A DNA stretch of 64,000 nucleotides, from the NCBI GenBank assembly GCA_036172245.1, contig JAYWIR010000042.1, positions 1,612,001-1,676,000 on the forward strand. Direction: 5' to 3'. Below the pieces are notes generated by a model, which saw only the letters and a program-made list of their open reading frames with translations, made no database searches and was not told where the DNA came from. The stretch is from Raillietiella orientalis (taxonomy: Eukaryota). Below are positions 8,801 through 22,700 of the stretch, piece after piece. The position numbers and the translations under genes were made by a program. How positions within the stretch are numbered: the first letter of the stretch is position 1; each line of letters starts with the position of its first letter.

Positions 8801-11430
8801 ACATTTGGATGATGTCTTTCAAATTCTTGTGTTGGTTATTTTGAATGTAGAAAATCTTTGAAGTGATGAACTGAATACGTGAACCACAGAGTCATGAAAT
8901 CCAACCATCTAAACTTTTGGAGTATTAAATACTTCAGTAGATTTGATTGGGAGTACATTTCCAGTAAAGTCATATTTAGTTTCATGGTGTGTTTTTGAAT
9001 TGTTTTTAGTGTGCATTTGCTATTTGAATGGTTTGCAGTCCAGTCATCAGTATGCAAAATTGGAGTTTGCGGCAATCCAAGTTTGAGAGCCCTTTCAGAT
9101 TACTTGTTCCAACTTTTGCGAATATATCGGTGTTTTGATTTCACCATCTTTTCAAGTAGTAATCACATTTTTTCCTATAATTATGCAAACTGAGTATAGT
9201 CCATTTATGTGTGGAGCAAGGGAGTATCCACTTATGCTTTATTTAGCTTGAGATGCCTGCTTTTTTTTTTATCTTTGCAAGCATAGCAGGAGATCCAGTT
9301 TATTTGAACATTGAATATTGCACAAGTGATTTTTAATAACTCCCGATCTGACTTTTCGGAATAATGGTTCTTAAAGAAATATATTCATGTGCCACTCCAC
9401 ATTATTAGGACAATGAAACGTCATTTCTTCACAACATTGAAATTACTGAACTTCTAGCCAAAAAAACTATTGCATGCTAACCAATGTTTTTTGTTTGAAA
9501 TTGTTTTGTGGCATTTTTGTGCACAGCCAAAAAAATCTTGCCCATTATTCAGTTCCTTATTCTTTTTGAATTTAGTTCTGAACATTGTGAATGAACTGAA
9601 AACGATGGAAACTTTGAATAGTTTGAAACTTGAAGGAAACAGCTTGGGGATCGAAGCTGCAAAAGCAATTGGTGAAGCATTAGCGCTTCATTCTGATTTG
9701 AAAAGTGCTAAATGGAAGGATTTATTCACAGGCAGACTGAAGACTGAAATCCCACAAGCTTTGGTAATATAATTGTTACCTGTGTATGTTACTGTTGGTA
9801 TCCTATAATTGAAGAGTTATCTGAGGCAAGGACTAGAGAGAGGCCACGTTCAGTTAGAAGAACTAGATCTCAGCGATAATGCTATTGGTCCTGTTGGCAT
9901 GGAGGAACTACAAAACTTGTTAAAAAGTCCAGTATGCTACACATTGAAAGAGCTTAGACTCAATAATTGTGGTTTGGGTATCCAAGGAGGACAAGTAAGT
10001 AAATCAATGAATCCTGCAACAAAAACCTATATTTGCAGATGCTGTCAAATGCCCTCTTAGAGTGCCACAAATCAAGCAGTTCTGTAGGAAAACCTTTATC
10101 CCTAAGGGTTCTGCAATTGGGCCGAAATCGCCTTGAAAATAAAGGAGCTATCTCTTTAGCGAAATTGTTCAAGGTTATAAAAACTCTAGTGAGGATTAAA
10201 GCGTTATCAGATATGTAGGTTCTAAAAACTCTTGAAGTTGTCGAAATGCCCCAAAATGGTATCTACTTCAAAGGATTTGAAGCATTAGCAGAAGCTCTCG
10301 CTCTGAATTCTTTCTTATATGAATTAAATCTAAATGATAATACATCTACTGAGAAGGGAGCTAAAGCTTTAGCAAACATTATTCCCCATCTTCCACGATT
10401 AAAGATACTGAACCTTGGTGATTGCCTTCTCAAGACAAAAGGAGCTGAACTCATCAGCCATTCTTTACAGCTTCACAGTCAAGAATTGAGGGTTAGTTGC
10501 TTATGATTTCTTATGAATTGACAAATTAATATAGGAACTCCATTTATCTGCCAACGATATTTCTTTAAATGGTGCCTTAAACATATTAGAATGCACAAGT
10601 AATTTGAATAATCTGGATCTGTTGGATCTAAGTGGAAATTCGTTTGGTAAGATTGATTGTCATAAATTATTTTCTCATCCTGGAAGAGGTGATTGGGTTC
10701 ATGTCCTGCGAAATCTGTAAGCATTGCATTACTGGCTTAAACTTTGATGACTTTCCTGCTGTAGTAATGAACATGAAGATGAAATGGAGGGAAGCGAAGA
10801 ATGCCTAAGTGAAAGTGAGGTATCAAGAACATTAGATGAGAGTAATGACATTACACAGGAAGAATCAGACGTTTCCGTTGTAGAAAACTTTTTTCTACAT
10901 CCCACTATTGTGAACTTGCTAGAAATGAGTAAATATCCTGCATCAAAACTCCAGGAATACGTACAGGTAAAAAAATAGTTTCCAATTCTCACTTATGGTG
11001 CAGCATCATTGCAAACAAAGAGCATGACAATTGAGGACTGCTTAGAGTCTTTTGCCCAAGTAGCAGAGTTAACTGTGAATAACGAATCAGCTGTGGTTTC
11101 TCAGTCAATAATAGAAAAACTTTTAGCACATGCTTTTGCCACACATCCCATTACTACTACAAACTTATTGCTCGTAAAGTTAGGTCTACTTAAAGTGAGT
11201 GATTATACTTTTGTAGTTTTTACACCAGAATTATACAGGCAGAAGAAAAATCGTTTTCTGTGAACTGGAAACTGGAAGACTGCTTATTGGCTTTTACAAA
11301 CTATGTGAATCAAGTAACTCTTCCTCAAGAGGTGAAATCTATCTTACAATTCTTCCTGTCACAACCACAAAAAGAATTACAATGTTGCAAGGAAACTACA
11401 CATACATTACTGAAAGCATTATACCAGTAA
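5847..11430 (+). CDS. RANGAP1: Ran GTPase-activating protein 1 (spliced)
   Basis: Inferred exons 5847-6015, 9576-9763, 9815-9994, 10039-10173, 10219-10491, 10535-10646, 10689-10716, 10765-10966, 11021-11194, 11239-11430; all GT-AG and in frame. LRR motifs LEGNSLGIEAAKAIG, WKDLFTGRLKTEIP, LDLSDNAIG, GRNRLEN, MPQNGI; acidic linker; C-terminal LGLLKAEEK matches the RanGAP1 SUMO-site context. The 28-nt exon and the 11020 acceptor are less certain. Confidence 0.93.
8686..8703. repeat. (TG)9 microsatellite in RanGAP1 intron 1
   Basis: Direct read. Confidence 0.9.
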
Positions 11431-11485
11431 TAAAAACGTAAATGTTGAAGTAAAAATGTTTATTACTTAGACCATGATGAAACAC

Positions 11486-12544
11486 TCAATCTCTTGTTCC
11501 ATTCCTCTCACTGGCATAACTGGTTCCAGATCTCGATCTTGACCTGCTTAACAGGAGGATCAAATTAATGCTGCTGTTTCATTACCTTCTGCTTCTAACT
11601 GGAGAATAGGAATGTGATTGGGAATCTGATCGACTGCCACGTGAATAACTCCTTGATCTTCTCTGTGGAGACCTTAAGAGAACAAGAATGATGAAAAACA
11701 AGTCATGTCTAGTCTACCTCACAATCAGATGAGCACCTACATGATATGATCTCATGTTAGCACAGAACACTGGGTAAAGGTGAGGCAGAAATAGCTGCAG
11801 AGTATTACAAACCACAATAAACGAATCTACTGAGTAACAAGTGAAGATGCTACTGAATGATAACTGAAGATGGAATAAAAGAGAAAAAGGATTTGAAGGG
11901 ATTGTTGATTGCTGCTGGTACCACTGCAGGCATCAAAAGAGCTCTGTAGTATTCTGCTGCCTTGCAGATGGTCACCACAAAGAAAATCAAATGATGAGTT
12001 GGGAAGAGGTGTCAGATGGGCTGCCAGTGATGCAATAATGCTGAGAGACTTGTCAACTTGAAATGATACATGAAGTCCTAGAATGGGCAGTCCCATTAAG
12101 AGGTTCCACAGATTTTTGTACACCATTCATAAATTTTTTGTAGTCCCGAGTATCTGAGGAACTCACCTAGAGTAATTACGGGGTCTGTAAGAATATCGCG
12201 GCGAATAACGAGATGGAGGTCCGTAACGCCCTCCTCTTCGACTTTTCCCACTGGACATCTCTACACGTACACGGGAACCACAAATACGACTGTATTGATA
12301 TTCGTAGAATTTTATTTTACTATATTCAATTCTACCTTCCATCTAAGGCACGAACAGCATCTTCCGCATCTCGAGGATCTTCAAACTCCACAAAAGCAAA
12401 TCCAGGTGGATTTCTGGCTACCCACACATTGCGTAGTGGTCCATATTTGCCAAAAGCACTCTCCAGCTCATGCTTTGATGCATTGCTCCCCAAGTTACCA
12501 ACATACACCTTACACTCCAAATCCCACTCACGGTAACGTGACAT
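11486..12544 (-). CDS. Rbp1: Rbp1/SRSF3-like SR protein, downstream copy B
   Basis: Exons 12544-12336, 12289-12167, 11672-11586, 11543-11486. [22 protein letters not shown]...[21 protein letters not shown]...[11 protein letters not shown], then an RS tail ending GTRD*. AATAAA at 11464-11459. Confidence 0.92.
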
Positions 12545-12725
12545 ACTAGCTACTGATAACTAAATACTTTTGAAGTTCTCATTACATTCAAAGACTCGGG
12601 GTGGTGGGGTCGTCAAGCCCAATGACAGAAGTCTGCCTCTGTTCCCCTGCCAAAAACAAATTCACACAATTTTGTCAGTAGCTTTTATTCATCAAAAATT
12701 CAGTACATCTCCACACATAGCCACG

Positions 12726-14896
12726 CTAATTAGCATCATTACTGTGGAAACTGCCATGAGATCCTGAACGTGATCTGCAAAGATGGCAATAAATTCAGTT
12801 ACTTTTTTTTTCTAGAAAACAAAAAAAACAATGAATTACCTATTCTTTACAGGAGATTTTTCAGATGACCTGCTTTTGGCGCTAGAAATAAAGAAACGTT
12901 AATTACTGTAATATTTCCACTCACCCACCTTGCCTACCGTCTATCTCTGTTGTAAGAAGGAGAACGTGATCGACTCCTTGACTTGGAACGAGACATGGAG
13001 CGAGAGCGACTACGTGAATAACGGCGTGGAGATCTACAACATAAAAGGCACTCAGTATCAATAATGACCAACCCACATACCCCATTAGTTTTATACAAAC
13101 CTACGTAGTATATGTCCCACCCATGCCCTGAAGCGTCTTACGCAGTTAGTACAAATTCCCGACCTTACATTAAGATTATTGCAAACAGTGAAGTGAAAAC
13201 AAAATTTTACATGACTTTCAGCTCCCTGTGAAAATGCAGAATTTAAAGGGTCGACCATAGCAGACGCTGGTCATGACTTTGAAGAGCCGAATGTAACCAA
13301 TAAGCAGAAATACGAGGTAAAGCAGCCGAATAGTCGACTGGCGAGCTGATTTAACATAGCCGTGAAGTGGAAGTAGAATTTCAAAAAGGGTTTGGGTGAT
13401 GTGTTCAATGATGTCAAGGATGACAGAATCACATCTTTGTGGCAAATGGCGAATTATCAGATGGGAGTACAATAATAATGGGGAAGGCCATCCTGAAATT
13501 GGTTTATACAAGATAATATTAGTGCATTCCATCTAGTTTTCGGCCGAATCAATATCTCACTCTCTACATAGGTTAATCATGTCTGACAAATGCACTAATT
13601 TTCAGTGTTTCAGATACACAAAGTTTATAACTTTGCAATGGCTCCACAGCCAACATTACTGTATGTACTAAGGTGTACAAAGAAAAACCTAAACTGCTAC
13701 ATAACGACAATTATAAGGTATTTCATAATGTTGTCCATGATGCCGAAAACTTACCTAGATCTTGAATGCCTCCGGTAAGTATCATATCTGGAGTACCTGG
13801 AAGGTGGTGGGCCACGACGTCCTCCCCTTCTACTGCGGCCAGTCGATATTTCAACTCGCACTCTTGTACCACACATGCGCCTGTAAAATCACTGAACTTT
13901 AATTTTTGCCATTACGATACTTAAATTTAATTCAATGTTCACAAAAACTTTAAAACAAGATTGGAACTTTTTCCAAAACAAATGCTACTTGGAAAAACCA
14001 ACAAGTTCAAGACTGAGTTTCACATATATTTAATGATATAAATAACTTACTTAAACATATGAAAACTCAATAAAATCAAATGAAAACAAAACTCGAAACT
14101 TGTTTCACATTCTGAAGGGCTCATTGATAATGATCACGAATATCTTGCTCAAACTCTTCCCATATTACACTTTGTATAAAATAAAATTTCATAAGAGTAA
14201 TCTTGTGGATAAATCACCAAAATGCTACAAATGTCTGCAAAGACGATTGTTTCGACAAATATCAGAAAAATGATGACTCCGTGATATTTACATTTAAAGA
14301 ATTGGAATAAATAAAACGGGAAAATTACGTGAACCATTTGATTATGCCGATAAGAATTACGCTAAACCACATTTGCTTAGCCACTTATAGTTTATTTCAA
14401 TCTATTCAAAATGTGACTTCACAGTACTAATAATAACTCACAAACAAATGTCATTAAAGGATACACATGTATTCCTACTCACATAGATCTGCTATTGAAT
14501 CAAATGTTAAATACAATGGTAATAAGATTCAAAATTAATCCATGTAAGGGGTGAAAGAGAATAAGTTTAATGCAAAAAATACAAAATTCATTCTACAAGA
14601 AAGTATGCCTTTTACAGACATCCTTTTTGAGGATGGCAAAAGTGACACCAGTGATAACAAGGGATTTTAGCAATATTAATCACTTACGCTCCATCTAATC
14701 CCCTAACCGCATCCTCGGCATCTCGGGGATCTTCAAATTCAACAAAAGCAAATCCTGGAGGGTTTCTGGCCACCCAAACATTTCTAAGTGGTCCATATTT
14801 ACTGAAGGCGGACTCAATTTCATGCTTTGAAGCATTATTACCAAGATTACCAACGTAAACTTTACTTTCTAATGCTCTGTCATAATAACGGGACAT
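12726..14896 (-). CDS. Rbp1: Rbp1/SRSF3-like SR protein, upstream copy A
   Basis: Exons 14896-14688, 13880-13755, 13033-12938, 12881-12840, 12774-12726 (all introns phase 2). [22 protein letters not shown]...[13 protein letters not shown] tail ending SNDAN*. Alternative short form stops at 12934. AATAAA near 12689-12684. Confidence 0.9.
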
Positions 14897-16044
14897 CTCT
14901 AATGCTTTTCTAGAATATCTAAAAATTGCAGTCACTTTTTATGCTTACTACAAACAGTGACATTCATTTTTATGTATTCATTCATTCACATAATACAATA
15001 TAACATGTTACCTTAATCAATGAATAACTTAAATAACTTTCGAGATTTGAAATCAAGTCTCAAAAATTTATGTGGTAAAAAAATTTGCAATCTTCTTAGC
15101 ACGTTTAATAGTGATGGCTCAGAAAAGCACTAATTTCAACTTTCAAAACGAAAAAACTAAATACCAACACTGAGCGACACTTTCAGCAATCTGCTTTCAC
15201 TATAAACCACAACACAAATGGCAAACAACGCAATTTGAACCGTGCCTTGCAAAAACTAAAGTAAAACGATAAAAAAGTCAATAACGAATCAAGGCTGACG
15301 AAATGCAAACTGTAACCTTGCTTCAAACATAAGCGGTCGAAACACATCGGACTGCTGAACTTAAATGCGAAAACGAGCAATGCGCTGCAATGGTGGAATC
15401 CTAAAAAATATGAAGAGCACGCACTCTCAAATCATGCCTGAGGCTTCACAAATGGTTCCTAAGTGGCTCCACAAGTAAACAAACCCTTCAACAAATAAAG
15501 TAAAAATTGAGACCTACGCTACTTTTCAACATATTTTAAGAGTGTTAGAATCAGACTTAGATTCTAACACTTTGACGAAAAATGATCACGAATATTGCAA
15601 CCACAGGCCCGTTTACAATGAAAAAAAATTATTCTCAGATCACTAAAATTCTACATAACGTATTCGGGATCGACGCATACAACATAATTACAAACAATTA
15701 CAATACTTTTTGCAGCAAAGCACCAAAACACTGTACAAAAAATTCGAGTACATAGCTCTCAACTAAAACGAAAATAAAGATTCAAAACCGGGTAACGAGC
15801 TGATTAACTCCTAGCGTTTTTCTACACATCATTATAACACCATTAATTAATCCGTCCTATCGCAATCTTTCCCGCAACGGTAAAAAAACTACCAAATACA
15901 CTGGTGCCGCTAAGGCTGCTCTCCAAAGAAAAACACTCCAAAGTGACACTTTCATATTCAATACTTCAATACATCCTCAAATATATTCCATAATGTAGTT
16001 CTTACTTCTGAATGTAATGATTTACGCACCCACAACATACTCAC

Positions 16045-16110
16045 TATATTCAACGCAAACAAGTTGGGCACGCGTCCCTCTATTTTGCGGTCAAAATGGC
16101 GGCGAAATAG
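16045..16110 (-). promoter_or_regulatory. Putative non-coding leader exon / core promoter of the Rbp1 locus
   Basis: YY1/Pho-type motif CAAAATGGCGGC at 16092-16103, local CpG enrichment, and a consensus donor GTGAGT at 16044 on the minus strand. Confidence 0.55.
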
Positions 16111-18136
16111 TAGTTGTTGACGCATAAGGAAATACCAGTTCCTTTGAATTAAAAAACGGAAATTATGAAACTGCACATAAAACTATCAAAGGTTACAGTG
16201 ATATGTTTTTTTTTCAAACATGAAATCATGGAAAAACCAAGAATGAGAGCATTTTGTTTTGAATTACGGAAAAATTCATGATTTTTTATTTTTTTCATCA
16301 TTAATGAAGTTGTAAAGAATTCAAACCTCACAAAAAAATATCTTTTTTTATTAATTTTATAGTTAGAAGATTTCTAGAAGTAAAAATTGCAAGGTCCAAA
16401 TCATTCCATGCGGTCTCAACCATTCCATATTGCTGTATTTGTTTCAATATTGCATCCCGGAAAGCATTCTGGAAATCAATTGATAGAAAAAAATACCTGC
16501 AGAAACTCTTCCTCAGGTTTCCCTCTCATATTAGGTTTTCCTTAAGTGATTCCTTACGTGACTGTCTCCAACGTTTCATTTAAAATTTCATTAAAAATGA
16601 TGAAGATCCTAAAACAAAAAAAGTATTTCCAAATATTTGCAAGTTAAAGGATTAGGGAGAGATTTAGAACATCTAGAGCAATCTAAAGTATATCAATTTT
16701 AATATTAAATAAAATATTAAATAATATTAAATAAGCACCTGCAATAATTAAATCAGAGCTTCCGAGAAAACACAGTTATGGATTGAGATCACCAAGCAAT
16801 GTTTTGGCAACCAATCAACCTAAACTTTGAATCTTAAATTTCTTTTACGATTTGAACTGAAGAATTGAAAATTCAAACGCAAAGGATTAAATTTCATATC
16901 TCACACCTTTTTCTCTTATTTTTCTTCATTTATATAATTTGATTCAAACTATACAGAGTCCAACCTAAATCCAATTTATGAGCTACTGACAATTACAGTG
17001 AGAATGCTCCCATGATATTGATTCCTTTTAGGAAACAGTGGTAATTGTAGGTATTTGTACCTAAAGTTTTCTTTGTAATAAAAGTCCCCTGTAAAAAAAT
17101 AATGTGATGGATTTAATTTTAGCCATGGAAAATGCTAATGCTAAAGGTATTGTTTCATACTTTGAAATCAAAGTAAATTCATTTAAAAGTAATAGTACAA
17201 ATAACTTTAGTAGCATTACGACGCTCTACTCGAATTCATTTTTGATTATAAAATTCACACAATCCGGAAACATCTGTTCACGAAGATTTTTCTCTGCCGT
17301 GACTTTCACATATTTCAGCTTCATAAGGAGAATTTGTTCCCCTTGTTTATAGTAAATTGGATCCTGCGAACACATCCTGGACCATGTTAGTATAAATACA
17401 TATTCATCATTCAGGAAACTCTATGATCTTTTTATTTAGTTCTCCGGGGTTTCTCTTTTAAATACTCGTATTTCCTTCATTGTTGTGCATGATAATGCTT
17501 GCTTGCTAGGAGTGGAACTCATTTTTTTTGGCAAAGAGTTACTTATTCCATTGAAAACGAAGTAGAAATTTATGAGGGTCACAGGCTGGGACTTTAATGA
17601 ATTATATTAACTGTGTATGTATCTCGGAAGGCAAGATTTTCTTCTTACGTAGCTCATTAAACTGAAAATATTACTAGATGTATGCCATCAAATGAGGTTC
17701 CTTTTTCCTTTTTTTTTTGGCTGGATTACTAATTCAGGGTACTGATAATTAGGAGCATATTTTTCTACCTTTTGACGATGTTTACAACCGCTAGCAAAAT
17801 GAAAACCTTTTCTGTTTTGTCCAAACATTTATTGTTGGGAAAAATGTGGGAAAGCGTGCGTTGGCCTTTACTTTTCACATAAACAATCGTCGGTCGAGCA
17901 GGGTACACCTATTTGTACTGGTCCTCGTTCTTGCTGCTCTAGCAGAGAAGAAACTCTCGTGTGCATTAGCACAAAGTTGGTTGTCGTTAAGCAAAAAAGT
18001 GTTTTCCATAAAAAAGAAAAAAAAAAGTCGCCGAAAATTTGAAATTTATGTGGGTAATCTTCTTTCGCAGTGCCCCTTGTCTAACTTGAATGTTAAATTG
18101 TAAACTTTCGTTTACTGGACGTGTTTCAACGTTCGA

Positions 18137-18908
18137 ATGACATTTTATTTGCCAGTTTTTCCCAAACTGAAACCGTCACGGTTGGATTCACTTTGGTTTA
18201 ACGTTGACAAACCCCGTGATGAGGAGTCGGAATTGTCCAAGTTAGAAAAGGAGTATCAGCAGTGGGTAAATTAAACGTTCGAATGACATTTTATTTGCCA
18301 GTTTTTCCCAAACTGAAACCGTCACGGTTGGATGAGGCGTTGGTTTAACGTTGACAAACCCCGTGAAGAGTCGGAATTGCCCAAATTAGAAAAGGAGTAT
18401 TAGCAGTGGGTAAAAAGAAAACCTTGCTCGGCCTAATCGCAGGCTGGGGGAGCCTCTGGCAACCGCGATTGTTGATTTTTGAGCTGTTATAAATTTTTGT
18501 AAAGCTGACGCAGCCTGTGGATTTTAATTCAAGAATTGAATTTTAATTGCCATGTGTGTGAATGACTTGCATAATTTTACCTTTGTATCAGAGCATGAAC
18601 TGTTTTTATGTATATGTAAGAGATTTATTTTTTTTCAGCTCACAAATATAACTCAGAAAGATGTTGATTTGGCCCCAATTGGAAAAGCAGCACATGAGGT
18701 TATTAGCATTTTATGTATTTATTTTTTGTGTGATGTATGTTGTACCACATGCAAAGGCGTTTAATTTTTCATATTGTTTTAGCATTTAGATGAAGATGAT
18801 GATGATGATGATGACAATGACGAAGATAGTGAAAGTAATGATATTGATGATGATGATGATGATCTAGATGTTGAAATCAATGACAATGAATCCCAAGTGA
18901 CCCTATAA
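18137..18908 (+). CDS. ANAPC15: Anaphase-promoting complex subunit 15
   Basis: Exons 18137-18265, 18639-18698, 18783-18908 give MTFYLPVFPKLKPSRLDSLWFNVDKPRDEESELSKLEKEYQQW|LTNITQKDVDLAPIGKAAHE|HLDEDDDD...; matches the recalled APC15 pattern (LWFNLDRP..EETEL..QAWL..I..KD..L.PIGK followed by an acidic tail). Confidence 0.9.
18274..18413 (+). pseudogene. Disabled tandem duplicate of ANAPC15 coding exon 1
   Basis: Near-identical copy of 18128-18270 (period 146 nt). A +1 indel gives an early TAA; also a 3-nt deletion and CAG>TAG at 18401. Donor GT at 18410 is retained. Confidence 0.9.
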
Positions 18909-19104
18909 ACAATAGAGAGTGGTTGAAGATACATTGTATTTGTTGAATACTTCCAATTGCTTAAATTCTTGAAATTTTTCCACAAGGGCTGGTTTTCTTT
19001 TATCACATTGGAATAATGTGGATATAAGTTGCACTCTTTAATGTAGTGTACACTGACGTAACTTCTTGTCGATATTTATCTAATTTTTTCCCTTCAGGTG
19101 CAGT

Positions 19105-19758
19105 ATGAACATATATAACATTTACATTTTGTCGAAATCTGGTGGTCTGATTTATAATTATGATCAGGTCATTGCACGATCCCCTGTAGAAAAAACCTTT
19201 AATTTTCCATTACCACTTGTCTTAGGAAAATGCAACAATAAAACTGTAGTCGTATTTGGTGAACAAAGTGGCATTAAAGTTGGTTACATCTTAGTGAATA
19301 TTAATGGATGTCATGTCAATGGGTTTCAACTTGAAGGAGGCAGCAAAGACATATTTGAAATAATTCAGGACCCTGAAAATTATCCCCTTACATTGCAGTT
19401 CAGCCCACCATGGAATACAACAAATGACAAAATCTTCCTAGCTAGTATGTTCTATCCACTGTATGCATTGTCAGCTCAGCTTAGCCCAGAACAACACAGC
19501 TCAGGAATAGAACAGCTGGATGCAAATAATTTTAGAGTACACTGCTATCAGAGCCCAACTGGGATAAAGTTTTTGATAGTTGCCTCCCCTAAGCTCTCAG
19601 CAGTAGATGCACTGCTGAAGAAACTGTATGAACTCTATGCTGATTTTGCACTTAAAAATCCTTTTTATTCCTTGGAGATGCCAATACGTTGTGAATTATT
19701 TAATAGTAATGTTCAGGAAGTAGTAGAATTAGCAGAGAAAGCTGGAGGTACCATATAG
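19105..19758 (+). CDS. TRAPPC4: Trafficking protein particle complex subunit 4 (Trs23/synbindin), intronless CDS
   Basis: 217-aa ORF: IYILSKSGGLIY, PDZ-like insert, TTNDKIFLASMFYPLYA, SSGIEQL, LYELYADFALKNPFYSLEMPIRCELF. Acceptor ttttttcccttcag ends at 19097; AATAAA at 19780. Confidence 0.96.
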   Translation: MNIYNIYILSKSGGLIYNYDQVIARSPVEKTFNFPLPLVLGKCNNKTVVVFGEQSGIKVGYILVNINGCHVNGFQLEGGSKDIFEIIQDPENYPLTLQFSPPWNTTNDKIFLASMFYPLYALSAQLSPEQHSSGIEQLDANNFRVHCYQSPTGIKFLIVASPKLSAVDALLKKLYELYADFALKNPFYSLEMPIRCELFNSNVQEVVELAEKAGGTI

Positions 19759-19792
19759 ACTGTTTTCAAAATTACTGGCAATAAAGTATCAT

Positions 19793-22700
19793 TCACTGGA
19801 TGTGGACAGGTGTACATTCTATGAGGGATTTCCTCTTTTTCTTGAAGTCATGAGATGACTGCCACATATCCTCACTCACTGATACTATAGGTGCCCATTT
19901 TTCTAACAATCCATCAAAGAAGAGCTCCAACTTTTTACCAGCTTTGTAAATATCATTTTCGGGCTGAAAAAAATTACGTAAAAGCTCATAAATTATAAAT
20001 TGACATACAGTATTGAATTCTTGACAATTACAGAACAGTGTGCGCATATCAGCAACAAAACCAAAGAAAGAAGTGTATGCTTCTGGCGAAGATTTGCATA
20101 ATCTGGCCTTTATGACATCCAGAGCAATTGGTTGTTTAATTGCTTGGTAGTAATCCTCAAACTGAGATTAGCATGTTTTTGAATACTACTTCAAATAAAT
20201 AAATAGCTTACAGAGGGATCCACCATTTCTCTGAAAGCATTACTTTCTTCCTTCACATATATCTCTAACAAGATGCGTTCAGCAACCATTCTTTCTTGTG
20301 AGGTCATTGCATAACTTTTTTTTCGTTTCTGGCCATTGGAAAAAGGCTGTTCTACTAAAATCTGTTGATGCTGGCAAAAGGTACATTTCCAAACTTCATC
20401 TTCTCTGAAGAAAGTCAACTATCAAGATGCCACCCATAAAATATCATCACCTGGGAGCTGCTTTCAGCACTGGTACATGGCAGGCTAGATGATACACTTT
20501 GGGACAGGAATCACAGCACACAAGTTCTCCACCATCTTGACATACAGCACACCAATCCTCATTAGGATCCTGAGTATTTTCTAGTCTTGTAACACAGTCA
20601 GACAACAGGTTTGCAGCATGCCTTTCTTTTTCAGATTCATCAGCTTCACTATATACACTAGCAATAACAGGCAAAGAACTGGTATCATGCTGGCTTGATT
20701 CTGTTGTTTTATCGGAATTTTCGATACTCAGAGTACTCTGAGACTTGGTGAAGGCATCTGTTGGCTTTTCATTAAAACTTTTGTGTAACAATGTTTGGAG
20801 TGTACTGGTACAAGATGTCACTACAGTGCTAGGAAATGACACTTGCATGGGGAGAGTATCAGAAGCATTCACGTAGTGATTAATTTTCAATGCAGGGCTG
20901 TTAACATTACTAGGGCTAGGTCCCAATCGTATTTTAAAAGACTGATCTCCAACAAACTGGACATCATCTTCAGATTTAGATACACACTGCAATGGAGGTA
21001 TTGGGATATTTGATGGTATGTGCCAAGATGTACACACTAAAGACTGAGGCTGCTGAGAAGTTGGTTTTGGAGCAATTGGTTGCAAAGCCAGCAAATGTGG
21101 AGGCACAGGACGAATTTGTTGAACATTGGGCGCATGGCGAACTGCACAATTTTGTTGGCAAGCAACTGTTTTCACACTTGTAGCTCCAGCTGTTGTTACC
21201 CTAACATGAGAGAGATCCTTAACACCCCACGTATCACTATTTGGATTGTTAGGTTTAGAAGCACAAGGATTTTGTTGAACAGGGGTGATTGTGGCTGGTG
21301 GCATACTTGGACTGACATTAGCTTGTGGTACTGCTAAAGGAGCAGAAACAGTTTTTCGAAAATGTCCTTGGCTATTCAACATTGAAATTGGCATATTAGT
21401 ATAAGGGATCACTATTCTATTTGGAGGAGACTGCCTCACATCTACAAAACTATTACTTGAGTTATGCATTGTAGCAAGTGAAGTATTGGCTTGAGATACA
21501 GCTGCAACTTCTGAAACTTGTTGAGAACCAACATGAACACCAACTGATCTCAATTGAGGATTACTATAGCTAGGATATGTTTGCCAGTTTGTTGGCTGTT
21601 GAGATCTAACTCTATACTGGGCAGGACGTATAGGAGCAATGTTAGATGTGCCAGCAGAAAAAGACCTCGCAGTGCTTGCAACATTAGGAGCTGGTCTTAC
21701 GATAGGTGGATAAGGCTTGTTATCAACCAGGATCTGACCCATTTCTCGAATTGCTAAAACAAGCACAAGACAGGTTAATAAAAAAAGGAAATCAGTGATC
21801 TTCTAAAAATTTTATGCATTATATCAATTTTTGATAGCAGCACGAACGTAGTCCGTGAAATCATTATCTCACAAAATAAAACAGTTCACACAAAGTAGGA
21901 TATTAGCATTAAAAGAAATGCCTGCAACCAAAGTCCATTGCATGAATAAACATGCTGCTTTAATTGCTTTTTAAAAGGCCAGTAGCAACCCCACAGGGGG
22001 ATCGTTACACTTGAGCTCGGATGATGGAAATTTTTGAATTATTCTGCTTCACAGCTTTCCTTCCAGCTTTTTTTTTGCTTTTTCAATGATTTTCTTTGTT
22101 TGGTTCGCTAAGTACTGAAGAACCACTCGTCTCCTCAGGGAGGCATCAGAGAGGCTTGGCGATGACGCTATATGGTGGCTCACAAAGATCTTTAAACACC
22201 ATCAAGCCACCTGAGGGTTCTAAGGAGCAACCCTGAAGGGACCATCCCAATTAATCCAGGAAGGCTCCGAGGATGGAGTCCGTTCCTCTTGCTCTTAGCA
22301 AGGAGCCCCGAAGAGACAATTCCAATTTTCTCTGAAGGACTCTCCCTGAAGGGAGCAGCGCATTTCTGAAACTCTGGAGAGGAAGCCCCCAAAGGGATCA
22401 AACTAGTTCCATGGAATGCAATGGAGGGTCTCCCTGAGACAGGGGGTCAGCTCCATTTGCACAATTGGAGAACACCGAAAGAACCAAAAGGAACCGGGTC
22501 GTGATTCCTGGAAGGGCCCCAAAGGTCAACCATGAATCCCAGCCAACCAATGGGGGCATCCTGATAAGAGTTGGTCAAAAGCCTATCAGCCAACCAGTGA
22601 CTTGTAAGACGTGTGACTCGAAACCTATGGCGCATCTATTCTTGGCATCGATCCTTTATGGGTATTCGAATCTGCAACACTTGGTGCCACACATGAAAGC

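Follow-up and report, generated by a model that had tools for sequence, protein, structure and literature searches.

How a gene that begins 196 nucleotides behind another one obtains its mRNA is the question raised by ANAPC15 and TRAPPC4 of Raillietiella orientalis, two unrelated housekeeping genes lying head to tail on the forward strand of contig JAYWIR010000042.1. We analyzed a 64,000-nucleotide stretch of this contig (G000:C42:1612001-1676000, hereafter the window, whose own positions are used below) and searched the 210-Mb animal assembly to which it belongs. The preliminary description of this DNA had proposed that both proteins come from one transcription unit, through alternative splicing, a bicistronic mRNA or spliced leader (SL) trans-splicing. 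The best reading, to which we assign a probability of about 0.45, is an operon resolved by leader trans-splicing. A single promoter at about 17750-18130 would transcribe both genes, the ANAPC15 mRNA would end near 18925-18940 by means of a weak TATAAA over the stop codon, SL trans-splicing at 19098 would rescue the downstream RNA as a capped monocistronic TRAPPC4 mRNA, and this mRNA would end past the AATAAA at 19780. These RNA steps are all predicted from DNA evidence, namely the genes, the spacer, its signals, the distribution of CpG and ten comparable pairs confirmed at other places in the genome. The elements involved are as follows.

17750..18500, forward strand: CpG-rich 5' region (CpG observed/expected 1.0-1.4), the putative shared promoter and first exon
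18054..18059, forward strand: candidate donor 5' of the ANAPC15 ATG, with GT present, as a shared-leader model would use it
18137..18265, forward strand: ANAPC15 coding exon 1 (Pfam PF15243, ANAPC15, E 2.8e-13)
18274..18411, forward strand: broken tandem duplicate of exon 1 within intron 1, with indels, an in-frame stop and a donor retained at 18410
18639..18698, forward strand: ANAPC15 exon 2, open frame with GT-AG boundaries
18783..18908, forward strand: ANAPC15 exon 3, which encodes an acidic tail and includes the stop codon
18904..18916, forward strand: putative poly(A) signals of variant type, TATAAA at 18904 (overlapping the stop of ANAPC15) and AATAGA at 18911, with a G/T-rich stretch downstream of them
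18909..19104, forward strand: spacer of 196 nt, CpG-poor (2 CpG, observed/expected 0.39) and lacking a stable fold (folding z +0.91)
19058..19097, forward strand: candidate 40-nt GT-AG micro-intron, a rival local partner for the acceptor (the short introns of this genome measure 39-54 nt)
19080..19097, forward strand: motif that we take to resemble a branch point, pyrimidine tract (11 of 12 positions) and acceptor 7 nt before the TRAPPC4 ATG
19105..19758, forward strand: TRAPPC4 (Trs23), intronless coding sequence (CDS) for 217 residues (Pfam Sybindin, E 1.5e-43)
19780..19785, forward strand: canonical AATAAA, 22 nt past the TRAPPC4 stop

ANAPC15 and TRAPPC4 are real genes, each present in a single copy and separated by 196 nt. 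The three coding exons of ANAPC15 (18137-18265, 18639-18698 and 18783-18908) join with GT-AG boundaries into an open frame of 104 residues, and the stop at 18908 and the TRAPPC4 start at 19105 are where the preliminary description had placed them. TRAPPC4 is intronless as it had stated, complete from its own ATG and full length in comparison with 35 homologues. The segment 17760-18136 upstream of ANAPC15 is also single-copy. The closest protein matches of TRAPPC4 are insect sequences (about 60%), and in a quick, unfinished tree of 55 rows it forms a long branch (1.33) outside every supported clade. On the basis of these insect matches and of the Rbp1 N-terminus, which we take to be of arthropod type, the host appears arthropod-like. 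Insect-like TRAPPC4 loci carry an intron near residue 58 that is missing here, so that the intron was lost or the gene was retroposed; an intron is also lacking at some non-insect loci. No ANAPC15 was detected near TRAPPC4 in 80 metagenome loci, only about ten of them insect-like, with 0.6-5.4 kb of upstream DNA; this comparison has little power, as a query with exon 1 by itself matched no homologue. A literature search returned no paper tying the two genes together, its single hit being unrelated.

The case for one promoter comes from the CpG pattern, since in this genome gene 5' ends are CpG-rich and gene bodies CpG-depleted. Neighbouring gene bodies have a CpG observed/expected ratio of about 0.2-0.4, against 1.0-1.4 at 17750-18500. 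In the interval from -300 to +130, TRAPPC4 has 5 CpG where 11.3 are expected and ANAPC15 has 20 where 17.6 are expected (p 0.036). Of the 600 nt that precede TRAPPC4, the 300-nt window richest in CpG holds 3, as compared with 5-16 (median 10) in the best window of 40 control loci, a comparison that is indicative only because the control windows, taken from 1200 nt upstream of a domain match, differ in size and anchor. Upstream CpG is likewise lower for the downstream genes of the ten other pairs (median 6.5 versus 10 in controls, p 0.0004). ANAPC15 and most control loci have a CpG-rich patch at the 5' end; TRAPPC4 has none, so that the two genes are probably transcribed from one shared promoter. 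The proposal of a single transcription unit thus gains indirect support from this missing patch and from the ten further pairs, albeit not in its stable bicistronic form, which is the weakest of the three mechanisms proposed, given the plausible poly(A) signal at the stop of ANAPC15 and the strong acceptor in front of TRAPPC4.

The same data bear on whether the two genes are simply independent, with ANAPC15 ending at about 18930, a compact TRAPPC4 promoter at 18940-19050 and the segment 19058-19097 acting as an ordinary 5' untranslated region (UTR) micro-intron. Such an arrangement is improbable: the spacer and the start of TRAPPC4 are CpG-poor in the manner of a gene body, and only about 110 nt would be left for a promoter plus first exon. 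The spacer contains a DRE-like word to which no importance can be attached, since none of 36 upstream regions has an exact DRE; motif discovery over these 36 regions gave nothing convincing. In favour of independence, 3 of the 40 controls also have just 5 CpG in their best window, the spacer is the longest of the set, a variant poly(A) signal sits at the ANAPC15 stop, and the 40-nt GT-AG pair with its branch-point-like motif has a plausible length, 39-40 nt being found in 2 of 19 short introns.

This local donor at 19058 had been overlooked in the preliminary description, which had correctly noted the strong acceptor with its AG ending at 19097, 7 nt before the TRAPPC4 ATG. With a candidate 40-nt local intron, transcription of TRAPPC4 from its own promoter or by read-through has to be kept among the explanations. 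To judge which partner suits the acceptor, we compared it with solved introns. Of 28 junctions tried, 22 could be solved, and most introns proved very short (19 of 39-54 nt and three of 84-373 nt) with degenerate donors; an annotation-free histogram of intron lengths was too noisy to use. In the 12 nt preceding its last three bases the acceptor at 19097 has 11 pyrimidines, whereas the number at the same position is 4-9 in 18 short introns and 11, 9 and 11 in the long ones (counted by eye, with one ambiguous short intron dropped). The tract therefore exceeds that of all 18 short introns, which speaks against a micro-intron, and equals that of two of the three long ones, so that the acceptor looks built for a distant partner.

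A distant partner could also be supplied in cis. The two genes might share a promoter and a non-coding first exon, the donor at 18054 being spliced to 19098 in competition with the weak ANAPC15 poly(A) site, so that ANAPC15 would be skipped and would lie nested in a TRAPPC4 5' UTR intron, as in the FlyBase class "shares 5' exon". We consider this fairly unlikely, albeit with several points in its favour. The candidate donor lies in the CpG-rich region 5' of the ANAPC15 ATG, the acceptor is of the long-intron type, ANAPC15 is short enough for an intron of about 1 kb, and cis-spliced 5' UTR introns do occur in this genome (Rbp1A, donor at 16044, and SmD2). In Drosophila, 130 genes have a common promoter and 5' exons (PMC4528330; this and the other articles given by PMC number are cited for the available part of their text). 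Conversely, the leader would contain an out-of-frame ATG (18048) whose 8-codon open reading frame (ORF) overlaps the TRAPPC4 start. No AG occurs from 18071 up to the ANAPC15 ATG, and ANAPC15 itself would lack an acceptor in the 66 nt before its start codon. The model furthermore extends poorly to the gene trios and 5-kb upstream genes found elsewhere in the genome.

The poly(A) signals bear most directly on a dicistronic mRNA. As the preliminary description had stated, the spacer contains no AATAAA, and ATTAAA is absent as well. The variants TATAAA (18904) and AATAGA (18911) are present, however, and had been overlooked, and the AATAAA at 19780, described as the first one, is the first past the TRAPPC4 stop, another being located inside the CDS at 19237. 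For comparison we assembled 14 terminal genes, starting from 21 family loci, removing 10 whose reading entered an intron and adding TRAPPC4, RanGAP and CNBP. In 13 of these 14, AATAAA or ATTAAA lies at -4 to +54 nt from the stop, overlapping the stop codon in five. The ANAPC15 TATAAA at -4 occupies the position that AATAAA has in SmD2, PSMB7 and REXO2 (3 of 14), and a weak 3' end of its own is plausible for ANAPC15. A TATAAA over the stop, where this genome often has AATAAA, weakens the bicistronic reading. Among the upstream genes of close pairs, 5 of 12 have a canonical signal, versus 13 of 14 terminal genes, some pairs having been chosen for lacking one; upstream cistrons of Ciona and Oikopleura are mostly without AATAAA (PMC1488885).

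In a dicistronic model, transcription would continue past the weak signal to the AATAAA at 19780, whether or not the 40-nt intron is removed, and TRAPPC4 would be translated by re-initiation or internal entry. We regard this as improbable. Outside the CDS, 19780 is indeed the first canonical signal, and the upstream ORF is small (104 residues). Drosophila has 159 dicistronic pairs, its exclusively polycistronic loci have spacers of -34 to 319 nt (PMC4528330), and the lmgB spacer is listed as 89 nt (PMC4528330 supplement). Against this, the ANAPC15 TATAAA stands at the exact AATAAA position of three other genes, canonical signals occur in five of the twelve upstream genes just mentioned, two more ATGs intervene in the spacer (19016 and 19041), and the strong acceptor would be left unexplained. 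No structured spacer or internal ribosome entry site-like fold was detected (z +0.91). A fusion of ANAPC15 and TRAPPC4 into one protein was also considered and rejected, as the donors at 18054, 18266, 18699 and 18897 all join out of frame and the TRAPPC4 reading frame is already complete when begun at its own ATG. These four and 18410 had been put forward as candidate donors; GT is present at all five, and 18410 belongs to the broken exon 1 duplicate.

Leader trans-splicing as the favoured explanation draws much of its weight from similar pairs elsewhere. The preliminary description had proposed a scan for close same-strand pairs, and ten further ones were confirmed in genome DNA, with spacers of 42-143 nt and a YAG acceptor in every spacer: VHL-RUVBL1, PLPBP-MARS2, MARS2-ZDHHC16, Ku80-CHRAC1, CHRAC1 and its next gene, WASHC5 and its next gene, UTP23-NAXD, REXO4-CNBP, EB1-PSMB2 and TGS1-NF-YC. 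Both members have Pfam support in seven of the ten, the PLPBP fragments and the two next genes giving no match. In five pairs the acceptor lies at most 62 nt from the upstream stop, a distance too short to accommodate a promoter together with an exon and a 39-nt intron, and in six no GT occurs inside the spacer 39-55 nt upstream of the acceptor. The upstream members include long multi-exon genes of several kilobases (WASHC5, Ku80 and MARS2), and there are two gene trios; neither leaky scanning nor exon skipping would account well for such arrangements. Trans-splicing would be the simplest explanation common to these pairs. ANAPC15 and TRAPPC4 form a tightly linked pair whose members are probably co-transcribed, and the genome has at least ten similar ones.

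Two of these pairs have features of their own. The EB1 stop and the first conserved PSMB2 codon are 143 nt apart (G000:C50:1073409-1073553), the acceptor lies directly past the position of the start methionine, and the spacer lacks any ATG followed by GT. The start methionine of PSMB2 has to be supplied by a leader with AUG at its end, by a distant exon, or by splicing from a weak donor, which would add 5-7 residues. In the second pair, the spacer between TGS1, which encodes the trimethylguanosine cap methylase (Pfam PF09445), and NF-YC is 86 nt long and contains an acceptor (G000:C12, about 3876300).

Several observations weigh against the trans-spliced operon. Among 12 pairs, ANAPC15-TRAPPC4 has the longest spacer, the most local GTs and the longest distance from stop to acceptor (189 nt), this distance making it the least forced case of the twelve. 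GTs are present 40, 50, 52 and 55 nt ahead of the acceptor, the first being 19058 and the other three apparently weaker. Trans-splicing requires an unpaired acceptor (PMC1488885); here the acceptor is strong, yet these GTs and the donor at 18054 lie upstream of it. The pyrimidine comparison depends on three long introns, and an acceptor immediately 5' of the ATG is also frequent in ordinary genes of this genome. Finally, such pairs were found at 2 of 44 unselected housekeeping loci, a lower bound (1 of 32 LSM and proteasome loci by Pfam over 280 ORFs; by eye, 1 of 4 histone-fold, 0 of 6 L7Ae and 0 of 2 other loci). This does not clearly exceed the Drosophila level, where 2.5% of the genes are polycistronic and, in addition, 130 genes share a promoter (PMC4528330), and the genome-wide strategy that the preliminary description had suspected is not established by the frequency. 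The Rbp1 pair, to which it had likened this layout, differs in that the Rbp1 members are paralogues, an AATAAA lies 37 nt past Rbp1A and CpG-rich DNA is found within 600 nt of Rbp1B.

The search for SL RNA genes that had been suggested adds to these unfavourable points. The Rfam SL2 and SL1 models gave 0 matches with the best 50 candidates scored for each, no SL-like gene was seen beside 20 5S or 30 U1 loci, and patterns built on the U5 promoter motif did no better than a control and returned only U5 genes. With at most about 50 candidates scored, these searches have a low sensitivity for a leader of unknown sequence and did not recover an intact U2 gene, the 12 best U2 matches all lacking a normal 5' end. 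Tandem small-RNA genes may be absent from the assembly or unscored, and in view of the U2 result the negative SL search carries less weight.

A processed CNBP retrocopy (G000:C22:3060295-3060866), intron-less, GC-drifted and with 74% mean column identity, begins at about the CNBP ATG and contains no REXO4 sequence. Its extent fits a monocistronic downstream mRNA in the REXO4-CNBP pair, but it may merely be truncated at its 5' end. The flank on that side matched nothing in the 42 kb upstream of CNBP or elsewhere in the genome and is too decayed to be read as a leader. The genome search gave no retrocopies of ANAPC15, TRAPPC4 or Rbp1, and none with a readable leader for Rbp1, EB1/PSMB2 or six L7Ae-family genes.

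In the fruit fly, lmgA is Apc11. The dicistronic lmgA/lmgB locus of Drosophila (PMC4528330) accordingly resembles ours in having a small anaphase-promoting complex subunit before an unrelated gene, the spacer here being within the known range, and differs from it in that a variant poly(A) signal and a strong acceptor are present here at the first stop and before the second ATG. Closer in another respect is Ip259/RpS27A (PMC4528330), with one promoter, shared 5' non-coding exons, a donor that precedes the first ORF and a strong acceptor ahead of ORF two; in our case the junction is predicted and the leader would bear an overlapping upstream ORF. Trs23 (CG9298) appears in none of 12 supplementary files of PMC4528330 searched, one further file having been left out. 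The operons of Caenorhabditis (SL2 type), of Ciona and Oikopleura and of the chaetognath Paraspadella (PMC1488885, PMC12460157) share with ANAPC15-TRAPPC4 unrelated head-to-tail housekeeping genes less than 250 nt apart, an acceptor just 5' of the downstream ATG and, in many upstream genes, a weak or absent AATAAA. Unlike them, our locus has a stop-to-acceptor distance of 189 nt and local GT donors, lies in a genome in which the searches above found no SL RNA gene, and belongs to an arthropod-like host. The locus would work most like these tunicate, nematode and chaetognath operons or like the FlyBase shared-exon genes. Every rival mechanism has a precedent in some animal, so that taken by itself the locus does not represent a novel type of system.

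What makes the locus valuable is that operons resolved by a leader may exist in an arthropod-like animal. A 2021 methods paper describes operons as not reported in amphipods and copepods having spliced leaders (PMC7986045, in the available text), and our literature search, which did not reach most subscription journals, found no report of an arthropod operon. If the operon reading is true, operons would be extended to an arthropod-like lineage, and the CpG depletion of its gene bodies would be relevant to the proposal that trans-splicing is linked to a loss of gene-body methylation (PMC12460157). As a tentative scenario, this could be an arthropod with many true operons and its own independently evolved spliced leader in which gene-body CpG depletion was kept, ANAPC15-TRAPPC4 being one of these operons and the intron-free TRAPPC4 a late arrival that landed behind ANAPC15 and lost the need for a promoter.

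Some minor observations concern the surrounding DNA. A search for known non-coding RNAs in 11000-21000 gave a single sub-threshold match and nothing else. The possibility that the donor at 18054 is a remnant of an older, third copy of ANAPC15 exon 1 was discarded, as 822 of 1000 shuffles score equally. Upstream of ANAPC15, a cell-cycle gene, positions 18028-18043 hold what we presume to be a CDE/CHR-like tandem element; the CHR hexamer by itself is common in upstream regions of this genome. The exon 1 duplicate (18274-18411) is recent, its first 60 nt being identical to the original. Elsewhere in the genome there are two SmE-like genes, both of which contain introns.

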